49,956 bases of DNA from a virus. The stretch lies in the IMG/VR virus record IMGVR_UViG_3300035698_021428. One strand, written 5' to 3'. Below the pieces are notes generated by a model. The model did no database searches and had not been told where the DNA came from. It saw only the letters and a list, made by a program, of their open reading frames with translations. Shown piece by piece: positions 6,680-45,577 of this stretch (positions are counted from its first letter, which is position 1; the number at the start of each line of letters is the position of its first letter). The translations under genes and the position numbers were made by a program.

Positions 6680-6762
6680 GCTGATGTGAGCCGAATTGGT
6701 AAGGCAGCACTCTTGTAAAGTGCCGAGGAAACTCACTGCAGGTTCGAGTCCTGTCATCAGCT
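6680..6762 (+). tRNA. type II tRNA, anticodon loop cttgtaa (reads as UGU/Thr in a 7-nt loop; Tyr-like architecture); identity uncertain
   Basis: Acceptor gctgatg/catcagc perfect; anticodon stem gcact/agtgc; 14-nt variable arm with gag/ctc stem; T-arm gcagg-ttcgagt-cctgt. Confidence 0.6.
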
Positions 6763-7452: not shown

Positions 7453-7552
7453 GTCTGCGTAGCTCAACGATAGAGCGCCCAACCTGCGATACAGTGTGCC
7501 CTTGGGAGACTGTCAGCTATGGGATGTTGCTGGTTCGAATCCAGTCGCAGAC
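7453..7552 (+). tRNA. tRNA-like gene (~100 nt) with canonical acceptor, D- and T-arms but an interrupted anticodon arm (possible 12-nt insertion/intron or degenerate); anticodon undetermined
   Basis: Acceptor gtctgcg/cgcagac perfect; D-stem gctc/gagc; T-arm gctgg-ttcgaat-ccagt; cccaa...ttggg could be the anticodon stem but encloses 19 nt; additional 22 nt before the T-stem. Confidence 0.4.
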
Positions 7553-7740
7553 TTTTTGGATCGTTAGAGGTCTTCCACAGTTTTTATTCGGGCACGAATA
7601 ATGTTATTCTGGATCAAAGGAAGAGCCGGGTCTTTAGCCCTGTAGGAATCGCTGTCAAGGCGAGGAATCTCGAAATCACATTATGCGCATATGTCTTCGA
7701 GCAACGAGATCGGTGAAAGGCCGGCATAACGATCTGATAT

Positions 7741-7886: not shown

Positions 7887-8705
7887 TTATTCTGCATATG
7901 TTCTACGATACCAACCTTCATCTTGTTTGTGTTTAGATTCATTTAAGAACCAAGTGTAGTTACCTTTTTCTACAGATCCGTCTAACTTCTCGCTTCTAGC
8001 GGAACCATCTAAGAATCCAAAGTTGTTCTTATGATCTCCGTGCCAGTCGCCGTTGACAATATCTTTCTCGTATTTTTCTTCATCTGTATATCTACCTGAA
8101 TCCATCTGCGCCGCATCGCCGAGGACTATAAATCGAGATGGAACTGTCATGATATTGTGTATTTTCATTCGTTCGGTATAATTTCCGCCGCTACGATAAA
8201 GATTTTCAAACCCTTTTTTCGAACCTATATCACAATATAACCAGTCATTTGTAAAGTAACTTGTACCTAAAGCTCTCCCAACTGTGTGTTGATCTTGCTC
8301 ATTATGCCAAACAGTAGGCTCGCCGCTAGCGTAGTAACTTGTCCCGTTGTCTAACGGGCATGCAAAGATTTCTCCTCGTAAGCCAGTTGGGTAATATGCA
8401 TTTACTGGTCGAGCCTCTCTAAGAGTAAAGATATCTAAATCTGGATCATCAATAGCATCAAGAGATCCGCCCCACATCCATCGAACATTTCTTTCATAGT
8501 GCTCATCTGAAACAGGTACATTTTCATCATTTGAATCTGCATACATCGCCCAAGAAAGCAAATGCTGTCTTTGGTTGGATAAGCACTTAAGATTCATGGC
8601 AGTTTTTCTAGCAGAAGCAAGAGACGGAAGAAGAATAGCTATTAGAAGAGCTATGATGGATATAGAAACCAGCAACTCGATGAGGGTAAAACCTTGTTTG
8701 CGCAT
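7887..8705 (-). CDS. prepilin-type N-terminal cleavage/methylation domain protein, DUF1559 / H-X9-DG-like (272 aa)
   Basis: N-terminus MRKQGFTLIELLVSISIIALLIAILLP; C-terminal HGDHKNNFGFLDG; architecture typical of Planctomycetota. Confidence 0.75.
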   Translation of the reverse strand: MRKQGFTLIELLVSISIIALLIAILLPSLASARKTAMNLKCLSNQRQHLLSWAMYADSNDENVPVSDEHYERNVRWMWGGSLDAIDDPDLDIFTLREARPVNAYYPTGLRGEIFACPLDNGTSYYASGEPTVWHNEQDQHTVGRALGTSYFTNDWLYCDIGSKKGFENLYRSGGNYTERMKIHNIMTVPSRFIVLGDAAQMDSGRYTDEEKYEKDIVNGDWHGDHKNNFGFLDGSARSEKLDGSVEKGNYTWFLNESKHKQDEGWYRRTYAE

Positions 8706-11158: not shown

Positions 11159-11241
11159 GGTGGCTATGGCAGATTGGTAATGCACCTGGTTGTGGACCAG
11201 GAACCGTAAGGTTTATGCGGGTTCAAATCCCGTTAGTCACC
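11159..11241 (+). tRNA. tRNA-His (GTG) with G-1 and an unusually long (15-nt) variable arm
   Basis: G-1 then acceptor gtggcta/tagtcac; anticodon stem cctgg/ccagg with loop ttGTGga; variable region aaccgtaaggtttat contains an aacc/ggtt stem; T-arm gcggg-ttcaaat-cccgt; discriminator C. Confidence 0.6.
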
Positions 11242-11249
11242 CTTTAGTT

Positions 11250-13070: not shown

Positions 13071-13279
13071 CTGAAAATGAGTTAAAATACGGCAAAAAAT
13101 TAAACAGACTTCTTCATAAAAAAGCAATGGGATATGAGGGCTCTATGATTTTTTCTGAAGGAGTATTATACGGATGGAAGAATGCAGGTTTAATAACTGC
13201 TGCTGAAAGCAGTAGGCTTGTCAAGGCATTTTGTACTGAAAATGATGAAATCGATATGACTTACGAATATGGAAGATAA
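13067..13279 (+). CDS. hypothetical protein (70 aa)
   Basis: ORF; TAA stop overlaps the 5' end of the tRNA. Confidence 0.4.
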   Translation: MTENELKYGKKLNRLLHKKAMGYEGSMIFSEGVLYGWKNAGLITAAESSRLVKAFCTENDEIDMTYEYGR

Positions 13280-13355
13280 TCCCGAACGGTGACGGGCACT
13301 ACTTGGAAAGTAGTTGGAGGTTAATAGCCTTGCGGTTCGATCCCGCTGTCTTCCT
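13271..13355 (+). tRNA. tRNA-Ser (GGA), type II
   Basis: Acceptor ggaagat/gtcttcc; D-stem cccg/cggg; anticodon stem actac/gtagt with loop ttGGAaa; variable arm tggaggttaatagcctt (gagg/cctt stem); T-arm ttcgatc loop. Confidence 0.7.
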
Positions 13356-13780: not shown

Positions 13781-13865
13781 GGAAAGTAATCCAGAACGGT
13801 GACTGGCGCTCATTGCTAATGAGTTGGAGGTTAATAGCCTTGGAGTTCAACCCTCCTGCTTTCCT
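13781..13865 (+). tRNA. tRNA-Ser (GCT), type II
   Basis: Acceptor ggaaagt/gctttcc; D-stem ccag/ctgg; anticodon stem gctca/tgagt with loop ttGCTaa; variable arm identical to the other Ser tRNAs; T-loop ttcaacc. Confidence 0.65.
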
Positions 13866-13882
13866 TTTAGATAGGAATAAAA

Positions 13883-31079: not shown

Positions 31080-32729
31080 ATGGCAACCAAACTTGGAAAA
31101 GGCGAGTATCCCAGCGATCATTCGCCAGAAGACTTTAAATGCTTTGGCCCTCCTGCTCAGGAAGACGGTCAGTTTGACGGCATGATGATGGCTGACATGG
31201 GCTGCTTCAAGCAAGATGGTACAGATTCCAACAAATTCTACCATGGCGCAGTTGTTCAATCCAAAAAAGATGATAGCTGGTATGCCTACTATGAATGGGG
31301 CAGAACTGGGAAAGGTTCTTCTGATAAGCAATTCGTTTGTTGTTCGTCGAAAGAAGAAGCTGAACAAGTATTCTGCAAGCAGATGCACTCCAAAAATGAC
31401 AAGCGAGGCGAATGGGTCAAGATAGGCAGTAAAGACATTCTAAGAGCGAAGACAGGCAAAGACTGCTACCTTATCCGTCCGCTCGCAAAGCGATCTCATG
31501 GCCTTCCAGACGCTCAGACAATCGTCCATGACGATAGCGGCAAAGCTGGCAGCGCCGTCGCTAAGAAAACAACCAAAAAGACCGGAAAGAAAACCAGCAA
31601 AAAGATTGCTAAGAAAAAATCAAACGTTGATCCAAAGACTCTTAGTCTTATGAAGGATATGAACGTTGCAGCGGTTGAATTTACTCGCTCGCAGGTTGAT
31701 AGCGATGCAGTCCCAACTCAAGGCGTTATCGATGAAGGCAGAGATGTTCTTATCGAAGCGGAAAAAAGAGTTAAGAAAATTGGATCAAAGCTTGAAGAAC
31801 AAATTAGCGATAGAGACCTTCGAGATCTAACGTATCATCTCTATTCTCGAATCGGGAAGCCAAAGCCTCTCAATACGCTTGAATCTGCCTGGATTCTTTC
31901 TCAAGACAACATCATGCGTTGGCGAATGGACCTTGATACATTTGAGCAGGCATTATATGCTCTTGACCTAGGCATTGGCAGCGATACTCAGAATACCTTT
32001 GATCCGTTCAATGGCATGAATATTGAGATGATTCATCTCGACCCGACTAAAACGGCTGAAGGTCAATTTATTCACAATTGGATGCCTGGCGCAACGAAAA
32101 ACGTCCACGGGCACGTTGGCGACATGAGTATTGTCAACGCATGGGGCGTTCGTCAAACTGATTTTGCACCAAAATTTGAAGCAACTGCTGCAAAGATTGG
32201 TAATCGCAATTTCACCCCATCTGACAAACCTATCAAGCAGCCCCGAAAACGATCTGATATCTCGCCAGAAATGGCTAAACTATTCGATCAAGCAAATGTC
32301 AATCTCTTATTCCATGGAACAAGATCTGTCAATGTTCCTGGCATTCTTCGCACAGGGCTAAGGCTCCCCAGAGAGCTTGTTGGAGTTGTCCTTACTGGCG
32401 CAATGTTTGGACCCGGTATCTATTGGGCCGATGATTGGAAAAAATCAGACGGTTACACTTCTCGACCAGGAACTTATTGGTCAAGAGGCGGGGGACAGGT
32501 CAAAGGTCGCAAGGCTTTTATGTTTGTTGCCAATGTTGCTCTTGGCAATCCTCATATTGCTCGCGGTCCTCAAGGATATACTGCTCCGCCGAAAGGTTGC
32601 GATTGTGTTGCAGGTCTTGCTAATAAGAGCAGCGTAGCCAACAACGAATGGATTGTTTACGACAGTATGCAAAATTCTCTTACATATCTTATTGAATACG
32701 AAGTTTCAGGCAGCAGCCGTCGCTGGTAA
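31080..32729 (+). CDS. poly/mono(ADP-ribose) polymerase-like protein: WGR domain, Lys-rich linker, helical regulatory region, PARP catalytic domain (549 aa)
   Basis: WGR YYEWGRTGKGSSDKQ; catalytic H-Y-E: LFHGTRSVNVPGILRTGLR (H-G-T), GPGIYWADD (Tyr), NEWIVYDSMQNSLTYLIEY (Glu), matching PARP1 LWHGSR / GKGIYFAD / YNEYIVYD. Confidence 0.8.
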   Translation: MATKLGKGEYPSDHSPEDFKCFGPPAQEDGQFDGMMMADMGCFKQDGTDSNKFYHGAVVQSKKDDSWYAYYEWGRTGKGSSDKQFVCCSSKEEAEQVFCKQMHSKNDKRGEWVKIGSKDILRAKTGKDCYLIRPLAKRSHGLPDAQTIVHDDSGKAGSAVAKKTTKKTGKKTSKKIAKKKSNVDPKTLSLMKDMNVAAVEFTRSQVDSDAVPTQGVIDEGRDVLIEAEKRVKKIGSKLEEQISDRDLRDLTYHLYSRIGKPKPLNTLESAWILSQDNIMRWRMDLDTFEQALYALDLGIGSDTQNTFDPFNGMNIEMIHLDPTKTAEGQFIHNWMPGATKNVHGHVGDMSIVNAWGVRQTDFAPKFEATAAKIGNRNFTPSDKPIKQPRKRSDISPEMAKLFDQANVNLLFHGTRSVNVPGILRTGLRLPRELVGVVLTGAMFGPGIYWADDWKKSDGYTSRPGTYWSRGGGQVKGRKAFMFVANVALGNPHIARGPQGYTAPPKGCDCVAGLANKSSVANNEWIVYDSMQNSLTYLIEYEVSGSSRRW

Positions 32730-42648: not shown

Positions 42649-42720
42649 GCTTCGTTAGCTCAATGGTAGAGCAATAGTTTCTAAAACTACAGGTTGTCGG
42701 TTCGAGTCCGACACGAGGCA
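42649..42720 (+). tRNA. tRNA with CUA anticodon (amber suppressor), discriminator A
   Basis: Acceptor gcttcgt/acgaggc; D-arm gctc-aatggta-gagc; anticodon stem atagt/actac with loop ttCTAaa (U33, A37, A38); 5-nt variable; T-arm gtcgg-ttcgagt-ccgac. Confidence 0.7.
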
Positions 42721-42775
42721 TTGAAAGGGTTGAATTAAATGGATGGTCTTAACCGATTATAGCTAGGAGATAATC

Positions 42776-42982
42776 ATGTGTAGTAGAAATTGCAGAAGTT
42801 TGACAGTTGGAGAACAGGTTAGAGCCAAGCTTGGTACTATGTCTAGTAGAGAAGCAATGCGTCTCAATATAGACCATCGAGCGGGCCGTATCTGTGATAA
42901 AGATGTTCGAGATTCATTTGCTCTGCGAGACATTCGAAGCATTAATAACGGGACTCATCCAAGCCGTCGCAAGAATAGGTAA
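42776..42982 (+). CDS. hypothetical protein (68 aa)
   Basis: SD aggag. Confidence 0.4.
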   Translation: MCSRNCRSLTVGEQVRAKLGTMSSREAMRLNIDHRAGRICDKDVRDSFALRDIRSINNGTHPSRRKNR

Positions 42983-42987
42983 TAATT

Positions 42988-43659
42988 ATGAACGGTACAG
43001 CAGTTATTGACGGAAAGACAGTCAGTTTTGAGGCTGGCAAATCTATGAAAAACGTGGGGACCGTTCCGTCTATCGTTCTGGATAACCCCAAGTACGGTAG
43101 AAATGTATCGCAAATTATTCGTCTTGCTTCTGGCTACGGATTTAAACAAGTTTGGTACACAGGAAAACGGGTTTCGTTGACAGACCCTTCGCAAAATATT
43201 GATGGCATGGCTGGTAAAAAAGGAAAGAAAGGAAAGAATAAAGCTCGGCTACCTCGTGAAGAACGAATGAAAGGATACAAAAAAGTTGAGATAAGACAAC
43301 ATGATCGACCTTTCGATTTCTTTAATCGAGGCGTGGTTCCTATTGCTATTGAACTCAGAGAAGGCGCTCAAATGCTTCATAACTTTGAACATCCAGAAAA
43401 TGCTGTTTATGTCTTTGGCCCCGAAGACGGAAGCGTAAATAGCGAATTACTACGACAGTGCCATCACCTTCTTGTTATACCTGTTGAGCACTGTTTGAAT
43501 TTAGCAACGGCTGCATCAACAGTTCTTTGGGATCGTCAACGACAAATGATTGAACGAGGAATCGTTGAAGATAGAAGCCTTGACGATTTGATGAGAGGAG
43601 ATCGAGCAGGTCTCAGAGACTACGAAAAAGAGGACATGGTTTTTAATGGTCGCAAATAA
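42988..43659 (+). CDS. SpoU/TrmH-family (SPOUT) RNA 2'-O-methyltransferase with a Lys-rich insertion
   Basis: VLDNPKYGRNVSQIIRLASGYGF...; YVFGPEDGSVNSELLRQCHHLLVIPVEHCLNLATAASTVLWD matching SpoU motifs; insertion AGKKGKKGKNKAR. Confidence 0.65.
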   Translation: MNGTAVIDGKTVSFEAGKSMKNVGTVPSIVLDNPKYGRNVSQIIRLASGYGFKQVWYTGKRVSLTDPSQNIDGMAGKKGKKGKNKARLPREERMKGYKKVEIRQHDRPFDFFNRGVVPIAIELREGAQMLHNFEHPENAVYVFGPEDGSVNSELLRQCHHLLVIPVEHCLNLATAASTVLWDRQRQMIERGIVEDRSLDDLMRGDRAGLRDYEKEDMVFNGRK

Positions 43660-44377
43660 ACCTATAATTTATCTAGTTCGACACGGGGAATCTCAAACTA
43701 ATAATGGGCAAATTCCTCATGGCTCAATTGGGGATCATAAAATACCATTATCCAATGAAGGCAAGCTTCAATCTTCTAGAGTTGGTAAGTTTATAAAAGA
43801 CAAAGGTCTCGATTTTAGTAAAGCATTGCTCTATCGATCTCCATATCTTCGCGCTCGACAAACATTGAACGAGATGCTTGCAGCAAATAACTTATCTGAA
43901 GAGCAGGTAAAAATTTATGAAGATCCTCGACTCCGAGAAGTTGATCACGGATACAGCGATATCAATGCACAAGAGGCAATGCGCAAAGAGCATGGTTGGT
44001 TCTATTATAGATTCCTTGGCGGCGAAAGCCCAAGCGATTGCCACGATCGTTGTTGTACCTTTTTACAAAGCTTAAGAAGACAAGTTGAACGAAAAACACC
44101 AGCAAGAACCCTAAGCATAATTCCAGGAGAATTCGTAAACACATATGCTCCTCCTGTCCTTATTGTTTCGCACGGTCTAACTATTCGCTGTTTTGCAATG
44201 CGTTTTATGCATTTGACAGTTGAACAGTTTGAATCGCTAGGAAACCCGAGGAACTGCGACGTTATTACCATTGGGCCAAAATCCGAAATGGATGATCCTC
44301 AATTTGTTTTAGGCCAATGGGGAATTTCTGGCCTAAGAATCCGAACAAGCGATAAGGAAATGGATGCAAGAGTATAA
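43646..44377 (+). CDS. histidine phosphatase (phosphoglycerate-mutase family)
   Basis: IIYLVRHGESQTN (RHG motif), LIVSHG. Confidence 0.7.
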   Translation: MVANKPIIYLVRHGESQTNNGQIPHGSIGDHKIPLSNEGKLQSSRVGKFIKDKGLDFSKALLYRSPYLRARQTLNEMLAANNLSEEQVKIYEDPRLREVDHGYSDINAQEAMRKEHGWFYYRFLGGESPSDCHDRCCTFLQSLRRQVERKTPARTLSIIPGEFVNTYAPPVLIVSHGLTIRCFAMRFMHLTVEQFESLGNPRNCDVITIGPKSEMDDPQFVLGQWGISGLRIRTSDKEMDARV

Positions 44378-44684
44378 AAGGAAAATATCAATGTCAGAAC
44401 CAGGCACAATAATTATTACTTTTCCAGATGATTCTCAGTGGGAAATCCCTCAGCAAATTGTAGCGGATCATCGAGCCTATGAAATGGGCGACGAAGCGGG
44501 CACTGAGGCTCTGTTTATGCAGGATCGATGGAAAATGGAAGAATGGATTCAGCAACGCATGGGCTGGAAAGCAGATATTGCTAACCACGCAACGCTAACC
44601 ACTGACAAGGCAGAAGATAAAAGTTGTCTGTACGATGAGGAACTAAAAGACGCTTCTTGCGAAGCGAAGGGTTTTTTATATTGA
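44364..44684 (+). CDS. hypothetical protein (start 44364 or 44391)
   Basis: SD aaaaggaaa upstream of ATG 44391. Confidence 0.45.
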   Translation: MQEYKRKISMSEPGTIIITFPDDSQWEIPQQIVADHRAYEMGDEAGTEALFMQDRWKMEEWIQQRMGWKADIANHATLTTDKAEDKSCLYDEELKDASCEAKGFLY

Positions 44685-44875
44685 TAGACATAGACATCAT
44701 AACTAAAGAGGATTACCGCCGACTACGCCCCCTCTATAATCTCGGACGAAGAATTCGAACTCAAGATTTCTCTGGGCTATCGCCTAGACTAATCGAAATT
44801 GTCAAAATTAAAACCCGAGATATTGATCGGATCGATCAATTATTGAAAAAGGAAAATCATGACTGCCCAAATTAA
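44657..44875 (+). CDS. hypothetical small protein (TTG start, uncertain)
   Basis: ORF only. Confidence 0.25.
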   Translation: MRSEGFFILIDIDIITKEDYRRLRPLYNLGRRIRTQDFSGLSPRLIEIVKIKTRDIDRIDQLLKKENHDCPN

Positions 44876-45317
44876 TATCAGAGACGCTCTTGAAGAGATT
44901 AAGAGCGATGGTCCGATTCCTATGGACGAATGGGGCAAGGATCACTGGTCCCTCTTAGGTTATGTCTGGGAACGATGCATTAACTATGGAGGAAAATTAG
45001 CAGGCGATCACATGCGAGTAAATTCCGAACGAAATCCTGGCGTTCCTAAAGTTCATCCTTCTGGATCTCAATGGAAACCTGAGTGGGGAACTCGTCTCAG
45101 CGGCTACTTTCCAGATAAAGATATGTCGAAGCGGATCGACTATCATGACGATATGGATTGTCTTGATGATCTTGAGACCGCTGGTATTATCGTTCAGGGA
45201 ACTCGCGTCAACCCATTCGCTCAGCTTACTGAGAAGGGCGAGAAGTATGCGAAGGAACTGATGACCCATAAGAGTAGAGGCGGCAATTTTGCGGCCTTTG
45301 ATTACCGAACCGTATAG
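44859..45317 (+). CDS. hypothetical protein (152 aa)
   Basis: ORF. Confidence 0.45.
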   Translation: MTAQINIRDALEEIKSDGPIPMDEWGKDHWSLLGYVWERCINYGGKLAGDHMRVNSERNPGVPKVHPSGSQWKPEWGTRLSGYFPDKDMSKRIDYHDDMDCLDDLETAGIIVQGTRVNPFAQLTEKGEKYAKELMTHKSRGGNFAAFDYRTV

Positions 45318-45522
45318 GAAACCAGATATGAGCAATGAACAAAAAGCAGCTTTACCATGCGTCATTTGCGAAACGAATGAAAACTTACAACCAAAATACG
45401 ACTCTAGCACTGGCGAAAAATGGGTTCATTGCGACGAATGCGGTAAGATTTCAACGCCAACGGTCGATGAACATCCTATAGATGTTTGGAATCGAGAGAA
45501 CAAAGTCTCCGTAGTTCAATAG
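45289..45522 (+). CDS. small zinc-ribbon protein (77 aa)
   Basis: CVICE...CDECGK; TAG stop overlaps the tRNA. Confidence 0.4.
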   Translation: MRPLITEPYRKPDMSNEQKAALPCVICETNENLQPKYDSSTGEKWVHCDECGKISTPTVDEHPIDVWNRENKVSVVQ

Positions 45523-45577
45523 GTAGAACGGCAGTCTCTAAAACTGTGCGTTGCAGGTTCAAGCCCTGTCGGAGACG
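45505..45577 (+). tRNA. tRNA with CUA anticodon (second amber suppressor), discriminator G
   Basis: Acceptor gtctccg/cggagac perfect; D-arm gttc-aataggta-gaac; anticodon stem gcagt/actgt (G.U) with loop ctCTAaa; T-arm gcagg-ttcaagc-cctgt. Confidence 0.7.

Follow-up and report, generated by a model that had tools for sequence, protein, structure and literature searches.

Two tRNA genes with the amber-reading anticodon CUA lie in a 49,956-nt stretch of viral DNA (IMG/VR virus record IMGVR_UViG_3300035698_021428; the whole stretch is called the window here). Downstream of them, on the same strand, is a small PTH2-like gene, predicted to encode a hydrolase, whose reading frame is interrupted by two TAG codons. 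Based on comparison of the window with other large phages, we consider it probable that the suppressor tRNAs gate the translation of this hydrolase gene and do not reflect a change of the genetic code.

The interrupted gene emerged when the window and its relatives were translated with each stop codon read through in turn and the products were compared by BLASTP. One plus-strand alignment stood out, pairing positions 48188-48622 of the window with a 498-kb relative at 70% identity over 129 residues, with TAGs inside both sequences. The gene (48233-48622, +), delimited by homology across both TAGs, has the form MGFT-UAG-(41 codons)-UAG-(82 codons)-TAA. A Shine-Dalgarno sequence, AAGGAG, can be read directly at 48221-48226 (+), 6 nt before the ATG; the first in-frame TAG is codon 5 (48245-48247, +) and the second is codon 47 (48371-48373, +), each followed by G. 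The complete reading is AAGGAG-N6-ATG GGA TTC ACA TAG GGC ... CCT CCA TAG GAC ... TAA, and it begins 2.6 kb downstream of the second CUA tRNA.

The initial annotation had named conserved in-frame TAGs as a test of whether UAG is ever a sense codon in this phage, and the result is positive, since both TAGs of this gene are shared with relatives. The 498-kb relative reads ATG GGA TTC ACA TAG GAC ... CCT CCG TAG GAC, and the related locus L008 reads ATG ACA TAG AAC ... GAC CCA TAG ACT. The sole GenBank relative of the window found, the uncultured phage LR756511.1 (complete, 595,163 bp), reads ATG ACT CAC TAG GTT and has nothing but sense codons in the loop that aligns with the second TAG. The first TAG has the same position in L015/L028, L029, L031, L008 and LR756511, and an equivalent Shine-Dalgarno sequence precedes the ATG in L015, L008, LR756511 and L040. 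Both TAGs occupy equivalent sites in L008, in 498-kb and 488-kb IMG/VR contigs and in L031; the second is in the same column in L028, shifted by one residue in L008 and in the corresponding loop in L029 and L031. The interrupting stops are TAG throughout in the window, the 498-kb relative, L008, L029, L031 and LR756511.

From the first TAG to the start of the conserved domain the gene has no ATG, GTG or TTG. Over the 41 codons between the two TAGs the protein is kept while the codons drift (17 residues are identical to L008, 14 of them with altered codons), which rules out a pseudogene, an assembly error or an independent downstream start, and indicates that this stretch is under purifying selection. 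The comparison implies that full translation of the gene must involve decoding of both UAGs, and that UAG must be read as sense at least here. The earlier claim that UAG is a sense codon part of the time thus appears to be correct for this one gene; elsewhere in the window TAG is an ordinary terminator (see below). Both sites should tolerate any residue, the first being in an N-terminal leader and the second in a variable, gapped loop of the PTH2 fold.

The family assignment comes from profile comparisons. Pfam PTH2 (PF01981; gathering score 23) matches the window protein with 21.0 bits (E = 4e-4), spanning the second TAG, and the LR756511 orthologue with 27.8 bits, above the gathering score. 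A profile built from 26 members of the phage family matched solved Pth2 structures in the PDB over the whole domain, namely 2zv3_A (1.4e-7, positions 1-97 on chain residues 2-113), 24bt_A (1.8e-7) and also 1rzw, human Bit1 (1q7s), 1rlk and 1wn2, and the second TAG aligns to a gap or variable region of the Pth2 structures. The phage family has invariant residues of its own (R7, D9, V17, Q18, H21, A22, L51 and T78). The term "peptidyl-tRNA hydrolase" is suggested by the fold family and is used here in that sense.

The two tRNA genes had been described as CUA cloverleaves about 2.8 kb apart, and ARAGORN and Rfam recover both at exactly the same coordinates and with the anticodon loops as described. 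The first (tRNA-1; 42649-42720, +, 72 nt) scores 68.6 bits and the second (tRNA-2; 45505-45577, +, 73 nt) 63.9 bits against Rfam RF00005, whose gathering score is 29 bits, and these are the two top Rfam tRNA scores in the window. ARAGORN calls CTA for both, with the anticodon register at gene positions 33/34. The first tRNA, designated type A, has A73, G1-C72, C2-G71 and the loop TTCTAAA; the second, type B, has G73, G1-C72, U2-A71, C3-G70 and the loop CTCTAAA. All 7 acceptor-stem pairs form in each, with a single wobble pair (U3.G70) in tRNA-1, which also has one A.C mismatch at 27:43. Both have U33, A37-A38, GG in the D-loop, a 5-nt variable loop, a 5-bp anticodon stem and T-loops TTCGA/TTCAA, and CCA is encoded in neither.

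Orthologues of both types are found at syntenic places in relatives of about 0.5 Mb, where all four stems covary and the CTA anticodon and its loop are kept. Examples are GCTTCGT/ACGAGGC changing to GCCTCAA/TTGAGGC in the acceptor stem, ATAGT/ACTAC to GCGGG/CCCGC in the anticodon stem and GTCGG/CCGAC to GGGGG/CCCCC in the T-stem. Type A is represented by L008:8321-8392 and L011:8581-8652, both with compensatory stem changes, and type B by L011:12671-12746, L013:3300-3375 and L014:3385-3460; the CTA anticodon is invariant in nine orthologues. Because the stems covary while CTA and the loop persist, both tRNAs can be regarded as genuine and not decayed. The differing backbones had been taken to argue against a duplicated pseudogene, and the existence of two orthologous types, each with compensatory stem changes, bears this out. 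The evidence indicates that both are working, conserved genes of the amber-suppressor type, and neither decayed copies nor chance matches.

The label tRNA-Pyl that ARAGORN attaches to these tRNAs reflects the anticodon alone. A pyrrolysine (Pyl) tRNA was recognized here by a 6-bp anticodon stem, a 3-nt variable loop, a small D-loop without GG and accompanying pylS and pylBCD genes; the 5-bp anticodon stem, 5-nt variable loop and D-loop GG exclude it, and no Pyl genes were found among 30 window proteins scanned, the one trivial match (19 bits to class II PylS) being the window's lysyl-tRNA synthetase (LysRS). The proposal that alignment would reveal the parent isoacceptor was not borne out. By blastn against phage tRNAs, tRNA-1 matched a mix of Arg, Asn, Thr and Lys tRNAs and tRNA-2 matched Asn and Trp tRNAs, and nearest-neighbour comparison with 470 labelled tRNAs gave identities of 0.65-0.77 to mixed isotypes. 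The identity pair G3:U70 was not found in the suppressor tRNAs, and their discriminators are heterogeneous (A in 45, G in 13, T in 9 and C in 4). A firm amino-acid assignment is rejected because the isotype matches are mixed and the discriminators heterogeneous. The first tRNA carries A73 and U35, which are LysRS-type determinants in E. coli, where CUA suppressors are commonly charged by GlnRS or LysRS; the second has G73 together with Trp/Asn/Glu-like features. As a speculation, the LysRS encoded at 649-1803 is a candidate charger of tRNA-1.

The main tRNA arrays of the window and of LR756511 are tens of kilobases away from their CUA tRNAs, which are near the PTH2-like gene. IMG/VR, scanned with a four-sequence alignment, gave 80 loci, many on 100-500 kb contigs, and 70 after clustering at 90% identity; at each locus the gene was placed by tblastn and translated with the three stops marked, and tRNAs were called by ARAGORN. 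The gene begins with a start codon (ATG or other), 1-7 codons (mostly one to three) and a TAG at 42 of the 70 loci, and in none of these 42 is there a canonical start between the leader TAG and the domain. Two further loci have TGA as the leader stop and none has TAA, so that TAG makes up 42 of 44 leader stops, versus 19% of the ordinary stops in the same loci (binomial p = 1e-28). The leader TAG is followed by A 30 times, by G 10 times and by C twice, but never by T; a purine after UAG is a favourable context for amber suppression.

A suppressor tRNA was found within 10 kb of the PTH2-like gene at 57 of the 70 loci, with a median distance of 120 nt and the same orientation in all but one of the 57. 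Among the 42 loci with several tRNAs, the suppressor is the tRNA nearest to the gene in 34, versus 11.1 expected, a count reached in 0 of 200,000 simulations. Furthermore, anticodon and leader stop agree wherever a suppressor is visible, with CTA in 35 of 35 TAG-leader loci and TCA in 2 of 2 TGA-leader loci (Fisher p = 0.0015). The clear TGA case, L040, has a tRNA(UCA) followed by GGAGG-ATG GTC TTC ACG TGA, which mirrors the MGFT-TAG of the window. The loose pattern of ATG, short leader, stop and long open reading frame (ORF) was rejected as a sole criterion, with 267 background matches in 1.2 Mb; it is unspecific by itself, and what carries the signal is that TAG is used exclusively at this one gene. 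Together these data show that the pair of suppressor tRNA and stop-gated PTH2-like gene recurs widely among jumbo phages. Three of the PTH2-like genes that have no leader stop adjoin tRNAs of 91-92 nt whose variable arms are long (L074:11510-11601, L101:10610-10700 and L085:10317-10408); two of these tRNAs have the ochre anticodon TTA and one has CTA.

The PTH2-like family is also present in cultured phages, and tblastn against GenBank phages finds it in about 40 records. In Acinetobacter phage vB_AbaM_ME3 the sequence ATG ACT TAG ATT CAT, which is followed by the domain, comes about 450 nt after a "tRNA-OTHER, anticodon CTA". Pectobacterium phage CBB has AAAGAGG-N8-ATG GCA CAA TAG AAT, with a "tRNA-Pyl, anticodon CTA" 3.7 kb downstream on the same strand. 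In RaK2 the gene has a plain ATG start, and a search of Atu_ph07, which has a UCA suppressor, gave no match to the family. The GenBank annotation of the gene is often absent ("none"), truncated to an internal start or divided into two ORFs, and the records concerned are KU935715.1 (ME3_195/196), KU574722.1 (CBB_406) and those of Serratia phage BF, Yersinia phages fHe-Yen9-03/04, the Erwinia pEa_SNUABM phages and K64-1. The in-frame TAG is the likely cause of misannotation in ME3 and CBB, whose sequences were checked. Gene callers thus systematically truncate or miss the PTH2-like gene.

A gate of this kind would work as follows. The two tRNAs would be processed, given CCA and charged by some synthetase, and the charged CUA tRNAs would then compete with release factor 1 (RF1). 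When charged CUA tRNA is lacking, translation would end at the first UAG with a peptide of 4 residues; the full 129-residue protein would result when the suppressor beats RF1 at both UAGs, much as in an AND gate. A gate would cost least at an early stop, where a failed attempt loses no more than a tiny peptide and where ribosomes terminate poorly because the nascent chain is very short. Minigenes behave in this manner, with slow termination at such a chain length. We infer that the gate would serve to tie synthesis of the hydrolase to the current level of stop-codon suppression, so that the hydrolase and the phage tmRNA clear the by-products of read-through (dropped-off peptidyl-tRNA and non-stop complexes) only while suppression is active. 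The identity of the inserted amino acid is probably unimportant, because both UAGs are at tolerant sites. Suppression itself might serve to read through UAGs of the host or the phage, to produce extended isoforms of proteins or to open additional gated genes.

The tRNA and the gene could also be linked by negative feedback. The PTH2-like enzyme would in that case hydrolyse the aminoacyl or peptidyl ester of the suppressor tRNA itself, so that more suppression leads to more hydrolase and hence to less suppression, and the early in-frame stop would act as a sensor of decoding efficiency. Read-through would thereby be kept at a set level, much as release factor 2 regulates its own production by means of an early in-frame UGA. 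Such a homeostat is compatible with an enzyme that has its own invariant residues and no canonical GKGK motif, as expected for a special substrate, and it would account for the tight adjacency and common orientation of tRNA and gene even where the leader stop is absent: 18 of 26 loci without a leader stop still adjoin a CUA tRNA, often within 60 nt. A general peptidyl-tRNA hydrolase nevertheless explains the same data; the varied discriminators of the suppressor tRNAs also make a tRNA-specific enzyme less obvious. We judge the homeostat unlikely but retain it, because those 18 loci keep a CTA tRNA beside an ungated gene, and for the same reason gating by the leader stop is not the whole of the relationship between tRNA and gene.

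The initial annotation likened the two suppressor tRNAs to the situation in recoded phages and bacteria, and this likeness does not hold. Standard-code ORFs with 100 codons or more occupy 86% of the window, and the gain in coding sequence with TAG as sense is no larger than with TGA or TAA as sense. In a greedy set of 73 window genes the stops are TGA in 29, TAA in 27 and TAG in 17, and the in-frame sequence past the 17 TAG stops looks non-coding. When read-through translations were compared with relatives by BLASTP, no window gene other than the PTH2-like gene had a homology-supported internal TAG. A recoding signature was found in none of the 70 related loci, where TAG ends 227 of 1219 long ORFs. 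The complete LR756511 has a high standard-code coding density throughout, TAG ends 100 of its 545 long ORFs, and neither TAG-joined ORF pairs nor coding-flanked TAGs are in excess there relative to TGA and TAA. These counts indicate that the window is not TAG-recoded and that its suppressor tRNAs probably mark no code change.

Several individual candidates for sense TAGs in the window were rejected. The in-frame TAG at 46376 joins ORFs of 70 and 146 aa, and a PHROG profile shows that the 146-aa protein is already complete; the sequence beyond TAG 19536, which would extend a PHO4-like gene, looks non-coding; and TAG 45520 is inside tRNA-2. Most stop-spanning high-scoring segment pairs are off-frame or antisense shadows, and they are equally frequent for TGA and TAA. 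A separate observation concerns a 2H-phosphoesterase-like ORF with the motifs HITV ... HVSI on the minus strand of LR756511.1 (about 43.7-44.1 kb; reverse-complement offsets 551092-551497). This ORF has an in-frame TAG at 43822, between its two HxT motifs, and its match to Pfam 2H-SAK, which spans the TAG, scores 22.6 bits against a threshold of 27. It is a candidate for a second TAG-gated gene, of the RNA-repair type.

A code switch restricted to late genes would leave the window, as an early region, in the standard code, with the suppressors serving TAG-containing structural or lysis genes elsewhere. This pattern is well described in phages in which the code-change genes are themselves written in the standard code (10.1101/2021.08.26.457843), and only about 10% of a genome of about 0.5 Mb is visible here. 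However, the frequencies of TAG stops given above, both in the window and in the 70 loci, show no depletion, and LR756511, which is complete, has a CUA tRNA and a gated gene together with no recoding signal. The cultured carriers ME3 and CBB are likewise annotated in code 11 with normal gene density. A late code switch therefore seems to us improbable.

It is very improbable that the leader is a separate mini-ORF ending at TAG, with the hydrolase made by re-initiation at a non-canonical start and the suppressor tRNAs doing something unrelated (e.g., sabotaging host termination or rescuing nonsense mutations): mini-ORFs are known regulators, and the rare start codon ATT follows the leader TAG more often than any other codon (18 of 42), but the codons after the TAG in the clade of the window are GGC, GAC or AAC, which are not starts, a second TAG lies inside the domain, the leader stops are nearly always TAG and never TAA, the TGA leader of L040 adjoins a UCA tRNA, and the frequency with which the suppressor is the tRNA closest to the gene is far above chance.

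The interpretation of the suppressor tRNAs as a gate for the PTH2-like gene also has to accommodate a number of points that weigh against it. The covariation of stop and anticodon rests on two TGA loci, one of which (L039) is ambiguous, with a GTG after the TGA. In addition to the ungated genes that adjoin CUA tRNAs, there are 7 TAG-leader loci that lack a suppressor tRNA within the sequence examined, and XacN1 has CUA tRNAs and yet carries its PTH2-like domain, at the C-terminus of a longer protein, without a TAG. The window protein falls just under the Pfam PTH2 threshold, and the phage family lacks the GKGK motif of characterised archaeal Pth2, which leaves the substrate uncertain. The window is also only 50 kb of the phage, and late genes elsewhere could hold further TAGs. 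Finally, the case for the gate is comparative throughout, being made from sequences.

A broader proposal, which can be put forward only tentatively, is that the suppressor tRNA and the PTH2-like hydrolase form a self-contained, mobile "termination-override" module. The tRNA would force transient read-through of one stop codon in the infected cell, and the hydrolase, often locked behind the same stop, would limit the override by acting on the suppressor tRNA or its products. Through the override, host proteins (defence factors, for example) might be lengthened or inactivated, or extended isoforms of phage proteins might be produced. If this is true, the module would be a natural translational AND gate or homeostat, and it would explain the orphan suppressor tRNAs of many standard-code jumbo phages.

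Several known systems resemble parts of this arrangement. Release factor 2 (RF2, prfB) senses its own product through an early in-frame UGA and a +1 frameshift. As in the PTH2-like gene, an early in-frame stop in a termination-related gene makes synthesis depend on decoding efficiency; unlike prfB, the PTH2-like gene encodes a hydrolase and not a release factor, and a dedicated tRNA would read through its stop. The bar minigenes of phage lambda, which promote drop-off of peptidyl-tRNA, the substrate of Pth, share with the gated genes the order of Shine-Dalgarno sequence, ATG, one to three codons and stop. Unlike the bar minigenes, the minigene here is fused in frame to a hydrolase gene and would be opened by a suppressor tRNA.

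The pyrrolysine system (pylT with anticodon CUA, and UAG in methylamine methyltransferase genes) and the selenocysteine (Sec) system likewise have a dedicated stop-reading tRNA near few client genes, while the rest of the genome keeps the codon as a stop. In contrast to Pyl, the tRNAs here are canonical, no pylS or pylBCD was seen and there is no sign of a special amino acid; in contrast to both Pyl and Sec, the UAGs are at tolerant and not catalytic positions, and the discriminators vary between phages. The code-15 phages (TAG to Gln; Lak, crAss-like and other gut phages; Borges et al., 10.1101/2021.08.26.457843) also have a CUA tRNA that competes with host RF1, code-change machinery in the standard code and a stop codon used as a regulatory device. 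They differ in that TAG here is an ordinary stop for about a fifth of genes, with in-frame TAGs seen in one small gene beside the tRNA, and in habitat, the carriers here being not gut phages alone but jumbo phages of marine or environmental origin and cultured phages of proteobacteria. AND gates built synthetically from amber suppressors (e.g., PMC11669171) similarly need both an mRNA and a suppressor tRNA for output, whereas the module here would be natural and widely conserved.

The two components of the pair were each known separately from jumbo phages. Suppressor tRNAs are frequent in jumbo and huge phages with an otherwise standard code, and what they act on has been a recognized puzzle. 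PTH2 in jumbo phages was noted by Iyer et al. (PMC7824862). The XacN1 paper reported that no target genes could be identified for the suppressor tRNAs of that phage (PMC5852040), whose PTH2-like domain is uninterrupted and fused, unlike that of the window, and Atu_ph07 also has suppressor tRNAs without identifiable targets (PMC6102473). Stop-codon recoding in phages is established, and standard-code relatives have been proposed to gain suppressor tRNAs first (10.1101/2021.08.26.457843). The openly searchable full texts gave no account of a PTH2-like gene whose early in-frame stop matches a suppressor tRNA beside it, and a link between the tRNA and the PTH2-like gene is absent from the papers on CBB, on phage G and from large surveys of jumbo phages. 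Within those searchable papers, what is new is the conserved early stop, its adjacency to the tRNA and the match of stop and anticodon. Suppressor tRNAs thereby acquire a concrete and conserved client: at least 42 non-redundant lineages of uncultured phages have it, as do the cultured phages ME3 and CBB. A suppressor tRNA in a phage genome is by itself no evidence of an altered genetic code. If confirmed, the pair would provide a logic gate that occurs in nature, works by amber suppression and is linked to ribosome rescue, and the module is testable in cultured phages.

The genes around the two CUA tRNAs fit the initial annotation only in part. A SpoU-family RNA 2'-O-methyltransferase (42988-43659, +; Pfam PF00588, 1.7e-15) does lie between them, whereas the sole aminoacyl-tRNA synthetase of the window, said to be near, is 41 kb away. 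The SpoU protein has weak NCBIfam matches to TrmJ/TrmL, and its homologues are labelled TrmL by JGI; it is a candidate modifier of the anticodon loops of both CUA tRNAs. Homologues of SpoU among the 70 PTH2-like loci are confined to L028, L029 and L046, and SpoU, the histidine phosphatase (His_Phos) and HD_4 are all outside the widely conserved module. The synthetase (649-1803, +) is a short, divergent class II LysRS of 384 aa (Pfam tRNA-synt_2, 9.7e-60); it matches the NCBIfam lysine--tRNA ligase in two stretches with 329 bits, the cut-off being 468, and no tRNA-Lys gene was found in the window. Downstream of the PTH2-like gene is a conserved neighbour of 312 aa (48661-49599, +), traced by tblastn and without a Pfam or PHROG match. 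Its homologue is just downstream of the PTH2-like gene in L028, L029, L033 and L040, about 1.6 kb away in L032, and also present in LR756511, and it may be a third member of the module in the lineage of the window.

Directly after tRNA-2 is a gene for an HD_4 protein resembling RelA/SpoT hydrolases (small alarmone hydrolase-like; 45580-46179, +), which could presumably undo the pyrophosphorylation of tRNA CCA ends by toxic alarmone synthetases. A histidine phosphatase (43646-44377, +) and a radical SAM protein (46815-47693, +) are also encoded around the suppressor tRNAs, and these three genes are kept with the tRNAs only in the closest clade (L028 and L029).

The gene order PARP - glycosyltransferases - M43 peptidase - metallophosphatase - SpoU - His_Phos - HD_4 is kept in relatives of the window. 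The SpoU protein has a homologue with 80% identity on a 47-kb contig and homologues with 63% identity on contigs of 498,610 bp and 502,461 bp, one of which is an IMG/VR viral genome (UViG); a search of IMG/VR with the window SpoU returned only an unrelated high-GC phage. SpoU relatives are present in Tara Oceans data. Given the gene order shared with the 498-502-kb viral contigs, the window is part of a huge phage in the 0.5-Mb size class, and it would represent about 10% of the genome if this is as large as in the closest relatives. Megablast with 18 kb of the window against GenBank phages and a scan of JGI metagenomes with its last gene gave no match, the exact tRNA sequences were absent from IMG/VR, and exact-protein searches returned only an ENA contig of 1.45 kb. 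The window has a G+C content of 41%, its genes are short, densely packed and largely on one strand, and no capsid or terminase gene was found in it. Other genes encode a PAS histidine kinase, PhoD and glycosyltransferases; some proteins match PHROGs without known function, and some share about 40% of their residues with proteins from XacN1 and Atu_ph07, which are jumbo phages. In a scan of GTDB proteins the nearest genomic homologues of the radical SAM protein were in metagenome-assembled genomes of Thermoguttaceae (37-39% identity), which have no CTA tRNAs there. Together with a protein carrying a prepilin-type N-terminal methylation motif (7887-8705, -), this gives a weak hint at a planctomycete host.

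Two further genes of the window are eukaryote-like. One encodes a protein resembling the major vault protein (23791-26127, +; MVP shoulder, 5e-25, and Vault repeats) and ends with tandem TAG TAA. The other encodes a PARP catalytic domain together with a WGR domain (31080-32729, +) and is kept in the 47-kb and ~500-kb relatives and in LR756511, where the protein is 50% identical.

The main tRNA array of the window is at 2-14 kb. ARAGORN finds 12 tRNAs and one tmRNA in the window, and ARAGORN and Rfam together find 13 tRNAs and the tmRNA (26303-26658, +; Rfam RF00023, 129.6 bits), whose tag is ANSNPLRIAA; LR756511 has 63 tRNAs, one with a CTA anticodon, and also a tmRNA (ARAGORN). The tRNA called only by Rfam (7453-7553, +; 46.9 bits, 101 nt) becomes a tRNA-Ala(TGC) when introns are allowed in ARAGORN; 12 nt are inserted behind the anticodon and the extra arm is long, which makes an odd structure. 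Long variable arms, unusual for the isotype, are also seen in Arg(CCT) (2026-2113, 88 nt), Thr(TGT) (6680-6762, 83 nt) and His(GTG) (11160-11242, 83 nt), all on the plus strand, and LR756511 likewise has an 83-nt Thr(TGT). Two tRNA-Ser-like genes, at 13782-13866 (+; loop ttGCTaa, Ser-GCT) and 17216-17300 (+; loop ttCGAaa, Ser-CGA), are missed by default ARAGORN and by Rfam at the gathering threshold; both share the 19-nt variable-arm string TTGGAGGTTAATAGCCTTG with the tRNA-Ser(GGA) at 13271-13355.

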